Origin: Octopus vulgaris
Lineage: Eukaryota
Length of the DNA: 64,000 bases
Assembly: GCA_951406725.2 (NCBI GenBank)
Contig: OX597818.1
Location: forward strand, 117,118,001 to 117,182,000
Reading direction: 5' to 3'
Shown in pieces: positions 35,426 through 62,822 of the stretch; within the stretch, counting starts at the first letter, position 1; every line of letters starts with the position of its first letter. The notes below the pieces were generated by a model, which made no database searches, had not been told where the DNA came from, and saw only the letters and a program-made list of their open reading frames with translations. A program made the translations under genes and the position numbers.

Positions 35426-36461
35426 ATAAATAATATATATATAAGCATATATACACGCATACATGGGCATGCCTACATATACATGGATATATGGGTCCAG
35501 GACGTCAAAAATACGTGAACAAAATGAGAAACGAGATAGGCAACATAAAGAACATTCTCTTCATCAGTTGTCTCCTGTTTTATCTACTCCGCGTTCGATG
35601 GTAAGGACAAGACGCGACTTCGTTGAAACAGTTATTCCCACAAAGTAAATTATATAAAATTTGAGATTTTTTGCGGAGGGTTAAAGTGGTAACAAAAAAC
35701 AGAACTGTAAGAAGTAAACAGTAAAAACAAACGGTGAGGGTTGTTAAGCGATAACGAGGTGAAGTCGTGAACGCTGGAAAAACGAGCTTACGATTGTAAA
35801 ATCAATGATAAGCAGTGTCTTTATGGGAAAAAATATCAGTTACTACTATGATATTGTTGATGAAACTCGTTCTTTGTCTACCTACTTACTCCCTTTGTGA
35901 TTTTGGTTAATGGAATAATTATAAAAATGAATCTTTTAAATTTAACTAAATTCTATATTTTTTATGCAGCTGAAGATTGCTCTACATTTTAAAACTGATG
36001 TAATACTTGCATTGTTCAATTAAATGGGGTTGCATGAAACGATCGTACTGCATTACTTCTGGATATCCTTGTTGCTTATTCTGATTATAATCACCACATT
36101 TTGAATTATATGGATAATGCCATACCAAATGAACACAAGCGTCTGCTTGTGTTCATCAATTTCGTCCTTCACCTTGGCCAAAATCAACTGATTAAAACGA
36201 ACGAAATAAGAACAAGGAACTCTTAGCCATCCATCATAACAATAAAAAGTCCTCGAAATCGTCGTTCTTCTGCAATTTGTCTTTTCTTTCAAACTTTACT
36301 TCATACTTCTTATAATCTCTCTCTCTCTGTTTCCTTTATTATTTTCATCTTTCTCTCTCTCCGTCCCCTTTAACTTTTTCACTCGTCCTAATACATCTCA
36401 TTATTCCATCTATGCAGGAAAACTTTCATGCATTTATTGACACAGCAATATAAGCCATCTA

Positions 36462-59790: not shown

Positions 59791-59885
59791 CTCATCTTCT
59801 TTAACCATATGCATATATATTAGCATAAAGGACAATGTTAGAAATAAGTTATGTAAAGATAGGTGTAGGAGTAGCTGAGTGGCAA

Positions 59886-60298
59886 GTATAGGAGTAAGAG
59901 TGGCTGTGTGGCAAGTAGCTTGCTTACGAACCGCATGGTTCTGGGTTCAGTCCCACTACGTGGCACGTTGGGAAAGTGTCTTCTACTGTAGCCTCGGGCC
60001 GACCAAAGCCTTTTGAGTGGATTTGGTAGTCGGAAACTGAAAGAAGCCCGTTGTATTTATGTATATATATTTGTATGCGTGTGTATATGTTTGTATGTCT
60101 GAGTTTGTCCCCCCAACATCGCTTGACAACCGATGCTGCTGTGTTTACGTCCCCGTAACTTAGCGGTTCGGCAAAAGAGACCGATAGAATGAGTACTAGG
60201 TTTACAAAGAATAAGTCCTGGGGTCAATTTGCTCGACTAAAGGCGGTGCTCCAGCATGGCCACAGTCACGTGACTAAAACAAGTAAAAGAGTAAACAG
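59886..60298 (+). mobile_element. Full SINE family C
   Basis: Complete head, CORE-like box and tail; a partial duplicated head lies at about 59863-59888. Confidence 0.92.
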
Positions 60299-60785
60299 AA
60301 ACTCAAACAGAATTAAAGAGAAAATATGATAAATAAAACACAAAAAACTTCCGTTTCCGAATTCTTTAAAATAATCTACTTATCTTTTTCTTCTGTTTTT
60401 GCAAATACAGTTGTAAAACATTATTGTTTGAAAAGCGCAGTTGAAATGTAAAATTTGAGAATCTTAGATTTAAATGGGAATGAAAATTGTCTTGGCAGGA
60501 ACACGCTTTTATTCTTTTAAAATTAGTTTGTCTTTTCTATTGATGAAGCCTCTTACTGGTTATATATAATCGTTATTAGTGGATGAGTGACGTATTAAAA
60601 TATACTATACATTGATTATAAATAATTATCTAGGACAACATTGTGATGTAGAATACTATCCATTTAACCATTAAAAACATTAACGATTAATATCGACTCG
60701 TTCTATTTTTAAGTTTTCCTATAAGCAGGGCTATTATAACTGAGTTAACGGCTCATCTAATGAATGCTATACGTAGTCGTAGTAT

Positions 60786-60865
<80 letters not shown>

Positions 60866-61140
60866 ACAAAGGGTAAAATTAATTAATTAAGAAGTAATCA
60901 ATAATTTCACCAAGTAGAATTCGGCATGAAAAAAGGACCATTTCATGGTAGACTTAAGTAATACTAAATAATTAGGGTTCAGCAAAGATTTGCTTTACCA
61001 CATACCGAAGTTTAGAAATAGCAGCCAAAAAACGTTAGCTATTTCTTCTACTTTAAAAAGGGACTCCCAGAAAAACCAAAATACTTGAAAGCAATCCACA
61101 CAGGCAGAGAGGAAGAAGTAACGAAAATCAATAAATATCT

Positions 61141-61231
61141 GGTCACCTATGGACGCACGTTTCGGAATTAGGTTGGAAGGAAGAATATAGAATTATACTC
61201 TACCAACCGTTTTCCTCTTCAGCATAGGACC
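61141..61231 (-). ncRNA. Type I hammerhead ribozyme
   Basis: CCTATG-CTGAAGA-GGAA..GGTTGG..CCAACC..TTCC-GAAAC-GTGC-GTC-CATAGG; all core residues present; predicted cut at 61152/61151. Confidence 0.9.
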
Positions 61232-61584
61232 CCATCAATAATTAGATATTGAAATATTAAATTCGAAGGTACTGGAATAATTGAACATATCTCTCCACCT
61301 AGCGGTATCAAACAGATAATATTCAGTGTTAGTACCGCCGGATACCCTTTGTTATTATTGGTAATAGAATGTTCTCCCTGATAACAAGCTACAGATTTTT
61401 TTCTGTAGTAGTTTACTTGTAGACACACGAGGACGGGCAGGGGAGGGTAATTGAACCTCATTCATGTTTTGAATCCGGCGGTACTAACACTGAATATTAT
61501 CTGTCTGATACCGTTAGGTGGAGAGATATGTTCAATTATTCCAGTACCTTCGAATTTAATATTTCAATATTTAATTATTGATGG

Positions 61585-61675
61585 GGTCCTATGCTGAAGA
61601 GGAAAACGGTTGGTAAAGTATAATTCTATATCCTTCCTTCCAACCTAATTCTGAAACGCGCGTCCATAGGTGACC
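61585..61675 (+). ncRNA. Type I hammerhead ribozyme
   Basis: CCTATG(61588)-CTGAAGA(61594-61600)-GGAA..TTCT-GAAAC(61653)-GCGC-GTC(61662-61664)-CATAGG; stem III ACGCGCGT is a perfect palindrome. Confidence 0.88.
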
Positions 61676-61847
61676 AGATATTGATTGATTTTCGTTACTG
61701 CTTCCTCTCTGCCTGTGTGGATTGTTTTCAAGTATTTTGGTTTTTCTGGGAGTCCCTTTTTAAAGTAAAAGAAATAGCTAACGTCTTTTGGCTGCTATTT
61801 CTAAACTTCGGTATGTGGTAAAGCAAATCTTTGCTGAACCCTAATTA

Positions 61848-61878
<31 letters not shown>

Positions 61879-62199
61879 ATAAGGCAAGGAACAAAATGGA
61901 AAAGAGATTCAATTGACAAACATCAGTAAGATATATATTTATTATAATTATAGGAATAAATAAATAAATGTCAACTTTGTAGCATACTGGAACCCCAAAG
62001 TAGAAACAGCCATGAGGATTTTTGTATTGAAGTACGAGATGAATTCCGCAGTACGACCACACAAATATATCTTTAAGGTAATTCAGTTAATAAAACCAGC
62101 TTGCATATTTCTTTTGCATTCTCTTTTTCATAATTGACATTTTACCTGTAACTAGAACTTTTCTGTTTTAAATACCACAAAACATTATTTTTGAGTGTT

Positions 62200-62339: not shown

Positions 62340-62635
62340 AATTTGCAATGTTCAAGTTGTCTCCCTTCGCTAAGTTTTTTTATTTTTATTTTAACTATTA
62401 TGATACATCTTTCTTAGCCAGTTGTTATTTTGGTGAGCCCGCTGAGTATTGATAATATCTCTTCATTTTTTCATTCATACCAGGGTTTCTCTGAACGAAG
62501 ACGATATACCTGTTTTCTAAATTCTACGGAGTATATTGTCATGACGCAGAAAAACACCATCAGTGAAATTTATTCGTTTGATTTCAGTATGTTTTTCTAA
62601 CTTATATGCTGTGATAAAAATATTGAGTGACTCTA

Positions 62636-62822
62636 GGGCAAGCAGGTTCGTAGCTTTTCATCAGCCTTTCCGTTCTGAGCTCAAATTCTGCTGAGGTCAA
62701 CTTTAGCTTTCATCCTTTAAGGGTCGATGAAATAATAAGTACTAGTTGAACACTGAGGCCGATATAATCGACTTATACCATTTTTCGAACTTGCTGGCCT
62801 TGTGCCAAAAGTTAAACCAATA
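62636..62822 (+). mobile_element. Decayed SINE family B
   Basis: TTCTGAGCTCAAATTCTGCTGAGGTCAACTTT..GGCCTTGTGCCAAAA. Similar decayed copies lie at about 1340, 37147, 42846, 45943 and 46277. Confidence 0.75.

Follow-up and report, generated by a model that had tools for sequence, protein, structure and literature searches.

Locus architecture

We analysed a 64,000-nucleotide stretch of the Octopus vulgaris genome (hereafter the window; OX597818.1, positions 117,118,001–117,182,000), in which a palindrome spans 60863–61857. Its inverted repeat consists of arms at 60959–61343 and 61473–61857, each 385 nt long, with 12 mismatches and a spacing of 129 nt. Within the element and the TA runs that border it we distinguish the following features, with unit positions (+) counted from the predicted ribozyme cut.

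60812–60862: (TA)n target run, left side
60863–61343, minus strand: left arm, 481 nt, read leftwards; covers the unit from about +408, past the cut site, as far as end B (about +290)
60863–60958, minus strand: tail between end A and end B, 96 nt, left arm only
61146–61228, minus strand: type I hammerhead of the left arm; C3 at 61222, predicted cut 61152/61151, stem III ACGUGCGU
61343–61857, plus strand: right arm, 515 nt; spans the unit junction and the cut site, from about +278 to end A (+193)
61344–61472, plus strand: 129-nt "loop", ordinary unit sequence, right arm only
61588–61670, plus strand: type I hammerhead of the right arm; predicted cut 61664/61665, stem III ACGCGCGU
61764–61857, plus strand: 5' part of a structured and conserved 3' module, with its mirror image in the left arm
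61856–61881: (TA)n target run, right side

The two arms do not mirror each other fully: at its 3' end the left one extends 96 nt beyond the right, and the apparent loop is the start of the right arm. The inversion junction lies at 61343, with an overlap of 1 nt. The left-arm tail (60863–60958) carries a terminal hairpin and the 3' half of a predicted long-range stem (60920–60928), while 61764–61857 contains a hairpin, the 5' strand of that stem (61807–61818) and an AU-rich stretch ending at site A. A target site duplication is unreadable within (TA)n. Each of the 12 arm differences is confined to one arm and so arose after insertion; two further private variants are present in both arms. The element contains no open reading frame of at least 150 aa, and tblastn of the window with three local Penelope-type proteins gave no reverse transcriptase (RT) match. 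Lacking an RT + GIY-YIG frame, it is not filed as an autonomous Penelope-like element.

Long palindromes can be artefacts of assembly or of fold-back during library preparation. Such an origin is almost inconceivable here, given that the arms differ at 12 private positions and stop at the two fixed sites of a repeat family, each with sequence absent from the other. The window locus is an ordinary, decaying copy of that family.

Two hammerheads, one per strand

The original prediction described 385-bp arms with one complete hammerhead core (CUGAAGA, GAAA, GUC) per strand, a 6-bp stem I, a long stem II and a stem III of ACG(C/U)GCGU. All of these are present in each arm, the stem II region measuring 52 nt, and both cuts had been placed correctly. 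In the right arm, CUGAAGA lies at 61594–61600, the stem II region at 61601–61652 and GAAA at 61653–61656. Core positions C3 U4 G5 A6 G8 A9, G12 A13 A14 A15.1 and U16.1 H17 are complete in both arms. The predicted GGAA/UUCC pairing of stem II holds in the left arm and fails in the right, which has UUCU: a T at 61652 yields G10.1-U11.1 instead of the G-C pair closing stem II. In the left arm, a C>T change in loop III relative to the commonest form weakens the predicted self-duplex from -13.3 to -8.8 kcal/mol. Both hammerheads thus bear private CpG-type changes, one each; the unchanged form accounts for 19 of 32 pattern matches in the genome.

A strict hammerhead descriptor gave three matches in the window and one in 60 Markov-model controls of 64 kb (mean 0.017), so the window motifs are not due to chance. 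Rfam searches of the whole window and of local sequence returned no hammerhead at the gathering threshold or at E ≤ 10, only hairpin-like chance matches, a miss that we think likely to reflect the long stem II. With one ribozyme per strand, the window copy cannot release a monomer or a circle; since each ribozyme also carries a post-insertion change, the copy is likely a dead product of insertion.

A repeat family with two fixed ends

An exact 23-mer from the element occurs 808 times in the genome (control, 0), and a copy search yielded 2005 candidates, of which 40 were scored. Following nested copies led to sister families, and a motif in the 3' part that they share has 10,034 exact matches (control, 4). 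Measured from cut to cut in real copies, the units of the four families are 599, 592, 562 and 601 nt long and are 54–81% identical. Direct tandem arrays hold up to about 6 units in each arm; other arrays are arranged head-to-head. One locus (L008) has two hammerhead sites 599 nt apart, the tandem arrangement by which non-LTR retrozymes are recognized; the window copy itself contains no such tandem unit. At 34–36%, unit GC content falls within the range of non-LTR retrozymes (<50%, non-coding), and predicted unit circles are 62–67% paired (z = -3.3 to -7.6 against 25 shuffles). Unit length, at 562–601 nt, lies outside the 150–450 bp reported for them.

Contigs from three sequencing runs that we guessed to be RNA, and from one run of unknown type, cover parts of the element; no start, end or strand is visible in them. 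Words of the element occur in sequence runs of four organisms; those of two (A and B) contain diverged relatives, mostly of the 3' module.

Across all families, 3' ends cluster at two points about 100 nt apart: site A, at about +192 from the cut, and site B, at +283 to +306. We collected 70 distinct head-to-head pairs, of which 58 had both ends classifiable and 12 had a truncated or divergent end. Among the classifiable pairs, 55 combine A with B, one is A+A and two are B+B; independent ends would predict A+B in about half. In the sets whose query carried no end-B requirement, A+B was found in 29 of 31 pairs. One pair (L184/L185) looks like a single duplicate counted twice. The window copy conforms to this A+B rule, its left arm ending at B and its right arm at A. 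Orientation is equally one-sided: among the first 100 exact matches, an unselected list, 15 had a head-to-head neighbour and none a tail-to-tail one.

Copies with a single arm stop at the same places. Of 88, 47 end at A, 35 at B and 6 elsewhere, which identifies both as primary ends. Re-examination of 85 single-arm copies uncovered a short opposite arm in four, in every case of the other end type. TA-like repeats abut 195 of 228 ends, a raw count that carries no genome background rate.

Outside the ribozyme core, the best conserved part of the unit is the region from +100 to +300, whose shared predicted fold comprises a hairpin, a long-range stem around an unpaired AU-rich stretch and a terminal hairpin. 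Site A falls within the unpaired stretch, and the terminal hairpin stands just before site B. Covariation for this fold is modest, with two-sided changes in 4 of 44 pairs. A telomere-like sequence just before site A, AACCCTAA, was dropped as a candidate feature on proving absent from the other families. In many short palindromes the start of both arms falls between about +90 and +100, immediately 5' of the first conserved hairpin. The centres of L184–L186 contain a G+C-rich palindromic insert of 27–55 nt.

Long inverted arms in a TA target also recall a MITE-type or fold-back DNA transposon with hammerheads in its terminal inverted repeats by chance. We regard this as extremely improbable: the ends differ by about 100 nt instead of forming identical inverted termini, the centres vary, single-arm insertions outnumber inverted ones in our sample (88 against 70), and direct tandem arrays and 5'-truncated copies are common.

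The family also bears on a reading built on the original prediction, in which the palindrome is a selected device: read-through RNA, transcribing the antisense arm first, silences its ribozyme while RNA started in the loop cleaves. Read-through RNA is indeed predicted to fold back on itself, into a hairpin of -700 kcal/mol in which the core is paired and sequestered. As a purpose, antisense-first silencing is highly unlikely. Head-to-head pairs arise anew at many loci with arbitrary, variable centres, mostly without two ribozymes (two divergent matches at 3 loci, among 32 matches); the arm differences are private decay, including the CpG-type changes in both ribozymes; and the loop is ordinary unit sequence. 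A bacterial-type promoter scan of the 129-nt loop gave no match, which says little for an animal genome. Fold-back of read-through RNA is a by-product, not a purpose.

One template, probably circular

The two arms of an insertion resemble each other more than they resemble copies elsewhere. In F2, the youngest family, arms within an insertion are 0.27% apart and loci 2.3% apart (13 of 14 loci measured); the corresponding figures are 2.9% and 5.8% in F1, 1.1% and 3.3% in F3, and 1.2% and 2.4% in F4. Locus-private variants are common to both arms, and no pair mixes families. These sequence relationships indicate that both arms of an insertion derive from one template sequence. They do not support co-packaging of two different RNAs through the stem III palindrome, since none of the 70 pairs is of mixed family and arms share private variants.

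What form did this template take? The cut site is crossed by 113 of 213 arms, and only 4 of the 213 start within 5 nt of it, so that 5' ends do not pile up there. This pattern points to a template that was either a re-ligated circle or an uncut multimer. Tandem arrays help to separate the two: differences between units are all singletons in 6 of 8 arrays, and 7 of 8 carry locus-wide variants, which together favour a circle. Variants common to only some units occur in two arrays (L100 and L094); these fit a multimeric template or later duplication. Overall, the template was probably a circular RNA.

Ribozyme conservation and the dimer question

Comparison across families bears on whether the ribozyme is under selection. 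All four families, two of which (F3 and F4) were discovered through their 3' ends and not through ribozymes, have the same majority base at all 12 core positions, against 29% invariant columns overall; position 7 varies, in line with expectation. The stems change in compensating ways. Stem I occurs as CUAUG/CAUAG, CUACG/CGUAG and CUGAG/CUCGG, stem II as GGAA/UUCC and GAAA/UUUC, and the stem III palindrome covaries as ACGCGCGU, ACGUACGU and ACAGGCUGU. In F3 (the L107 family), A stands opposite A at 10.1/11.1 in 20 of 20 copies counted, and the stem III palindrome has 9 nt with a central mismatch. A fixed core with covarying stems makes it likely that source copies self-cleave.

Within families the signal is slight. 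Excluding loci chosen by core pattern, core positions have changed at 14 of 1230 sites (1.1%) and flanks at 561 of 27,388 (2.0%; p = 0.02, pooled); F1 alone gives p = 0.085, F3 shows no difference and F4 alone is not significant. Between families the core is fixed; within them it changes only slightly more slowly than the flanks. Such a small advantage would be expected of dead copies of selected sources.

Stem III is self-complementary in all four families. For the hammerhead monomer, the predicted pairing probability of stem III is at most 0.004 and the active fold lies 3–4 kcal/mol above the minimum, so that help from a dimer or a protein is likely on these models. Palindromic helix III supplies a logic for hammerhead dimers (PMC4209133). 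The original reading that a 2-bp palindromic stem III points to cleavage as a dimer is plausible. Yet a 2-bp stem with a tetraloop is reported to be the usual form in invertebrate hammerheads, and many of these cleave as monomers; one with a 2-bp stem III reached 22% monomer cleavage in an hour (PMC7229834).

Marks of Penelope-type insertion and the search for a partner

Autonomous RT + GIY-YIG elements are present in the genome; a GIY-YIG search gave 148 matches in 150 scored of 6136 candidates. They insert in a recognizably similar form. An autonomous family (family B, L088) is inverted, TA-flanked and carries a tail of about 32 nt on one arm. In another, family D, the 25 loci found with a query that required the long end include six inverted copies of which both ends are visible; in all six the second arm ends 32–39 nt short, and three further cases lie outside those loci. 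One-sided tails thus measure 32–39 nt in autonomous families and about 100 nt in the retrozyme repeat. Like these elements, the repeat has a head-to-head 5'-truncated copy, a one-sided tail and an AT-rich or microsatellite target, the marks of Penelope-type insertion. By its sequence, the family can be described as a long-unit retrozyme-type repeat with Penelope-type inverted insertion, unlike known ones in unit length; that it combines a retrozyme-type repeat with Penelope-type insertion is very likely.

Among 48 Penelope-type loci (32 + 16, of the 6136 candidates) we found no autonomous element sharing unit sequence, only nested insertions. Three candidate partners were rejected. Family D adjoins the retrozyme at three loci (L242, L147 and L234), always across a TA run, and at none of 25 other D loci, which speaks for shared targets and is not evidence of partnership. 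L253 is a broken fragment, and L252 belongs to what we take to be a host nuclease-like gene.

Different retrozyme and Penelope-type families have inserted independently in the same (TA)n runs at L013, at L242, L147 and L234, and at L091. A young Penelope-type family (L081–L086, for example G000:C16:20834500-20841500) has RT + GIY-YIG frames of 781 aa, a distinct frame upstream of these, up to 479 aa long and with no Pfam hit, CCAAT-rich tandem repeats in its 3' region and a hammerhead-like motif with a U3-A8 core variant.

Proposed priming from both ends of a break

That the two arms of an insertion almost invariably end at two distinct fixed sites makes copying by a Penelope-type enzyme from both ends of a break likely. 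Our best explanation, to which we give a probability of roughly three in four, is a head-to-head insertion of a retrozyme in (TA)n, with a Penelope-type enzyme priming both break ends at two fixed sites on a probably circular RNA. Source arrays would be transcribed and would self-cleave, probably aided by stem III dimers, and the monomers would be ligated into circles. A borrowed Penelope-type enzyme would bind the structured 3' module; DNA synthesis would begin at A from one end of a break and at B from the other, and the far ends of the resulting cDNAs would then be joined.

The second arm could instead arise by fold-back. The same element and a Penelope-type enzyme would be at work; a long cDNA would prime itself and be copied back to A, and the arms would later be trimmed as the unstable centre underwent unequal deletion. 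Such self-priming has been proposed for head-to-head Penelope copies (PMC3846280). One template sequence per insertion fits this route equally well. Of 53 A+B pairs, 41 have nested arms or a common centre, several of them with palindromic junctions; the 15 with matching centres, some with such junctions, are as fold-back predicts. Two observations make us think it the less likely route. First, in 12 of the 53 pairs, the window copy included, neither arm is contained in the other, and fold-back needs an extra deletion for each; in the window copy, at least 130 nt would have had to disappear from the B arm. Second, single-arm copies end more often at site A (47 of 88) than at site B, which marks A as a start site in its own right.

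Priming from both ends explains the A+B rule, the occurrence of both A and B in single-arm copies and the 12 of 53 non-nested pairs. Against it stand the 3 of 58 pairs outside A+B, with 12 of 70 unclassifiable, and in vitro the two strands did not differ in start site (PMC11167929). On balance, we lean towards two-ended priming rather than fold-back.

More tentatively, a dimeric Penelope-type enzyme on one RNA circle might assign one of the module's two priming sites to each break end and roll round from both, and the inverted-repeat-plus-tail form of Penelope elements generally might reflect two-ended priming on a single RNA. If so, the roughly 10,000 module copies would be a genomic record of two-ended priming, and the module would lend itself directly to a search for the enzyme behind retrozyme mobility.

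Relation to known elements

Metazoan non-LTR retrozymes (PMC7229834, PMC7761336, bioRxiv 10.64898/2026.07.22.740005) are likewise described as tandem repeats that encode no protein and carry a single type I hammerhead in each unit, with low GC content (34–36% here), predicted self-paired circles and Penelope-like elements in the same genome. The octopus repeat differs in its units of 560–600 nt (150–450 reported), its long stem II with an internal loop, its conserved structured 3' module with two fixed ends and the frequency with which it inserts in inverted, head-to-head form; the word "inverted" is absent from the main text of PMC7229834. PMC7761336 presents animal retrozymes as having no conserved motif that indicates their enzyme, and the phylogeny in bioRxiv 10.64898/2026.07.22.740005 links retrozymes to pLTRs. 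Elsewhere among cephalopods, 235 Rfam hammerheads were reported in a squid (PMC6962438).

Penelope-like insertions (PMC3846280, PMC8557442, PMC11167929) resemble the octopus ones in their head-to-head inverted arm, tail at one end, partial tandems, two cDNA start sites downstream of the hammerhead and AT-rich or (TA)n targets. An inverted 5'-truncated copy, a head-to-head bias and a one-sided tail of 30–40 bp are described (PMC8557442, PMC3846280). In vitro, a Penelope-like protein, a predicted dimer, cuts and extends both strands; cDNA starts at two internal RNA sites that bound the tail, with no difference in start site between strands, and ribozyme cleavage is unnecessary (PMC11167929). Unlike Penelope-like elements, the octopus repeat has no open reading frame, its tail is about 100 nt instead of 30–40, its arms can hold several whole units and its unit shares no sequence with the autonomous families sampled.

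Schistosoma Penelope-like elements have opposite-strand hammerheads 100–700 bp apart, with a palindromic helix III that suggests dimers; those hammerheads are minimal motifs lacking helix III (PMC4209133), unlike the octopus ones, in which stem III consists of 2 bp and a loop, stem II measures 52 nt and the whole lies within a retrozyme-type unit. Opposite-strand hammerhead pairs and one-sided tails are thus already published for Penelope elements.

In L1 twin priming, cDNA is primed on one RNA from both ends of the target, which leaves an inverted 5' piece; those pieces have no overlap, and the second site lacks a fixed position. In the octopus insertions, by contrast, both arms usually cover a common region and start from fixed sites. 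Dimeric Penelope hammerheads were reportedly described in a 2017 paper.

Which enzyme moves animal retrozymes has been posed as a question (PMC7229834, PMC7761336), as has the way in which the tandem and inverted structures and tails of Penelope elements form (PMC8557442). The family described here puts the Penelope insertion signature on a retrozyme and supplies a countable rule, in which A pairs with B and each insertion has one template, while its defined module of about 200 nt offers an object for tests in vitro. The weight lies in this family-wide rule, not in the window locus. In the literature that we searched, with most subscription papers, Repbase and supplements outside its scope, there was no description of this repeat family or of the A+B rule; the supplements of retrozyme papers could list cephalopod families.

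Other hammerheads and repeats nearby

A third, unrelated type I hammerhead lies in the window at 35964–36053 on the plus strand, with stem I AUGCAG/CUGCAU, a 59-nt stem II region, a palindromic stem III, ACGAUCGU, and a cut after GUA. It sits in another repeat, and about 550 nt upstream of that repeat is a (TA)n run. The genome contains at least six further hammerhead families (L072/L082, L138, L139, L117, L151, L068 and others), in which stem III is nearly always self-complementary and the stem II region is long in many; one of them, L139, presents another head-to-head pair. On either side of the palindrome, at 59880–60300 and 62560–62800, are copies of very abundant short interspersed repeats, presumably SINE-like, which also flank many of the loci that we fetched.
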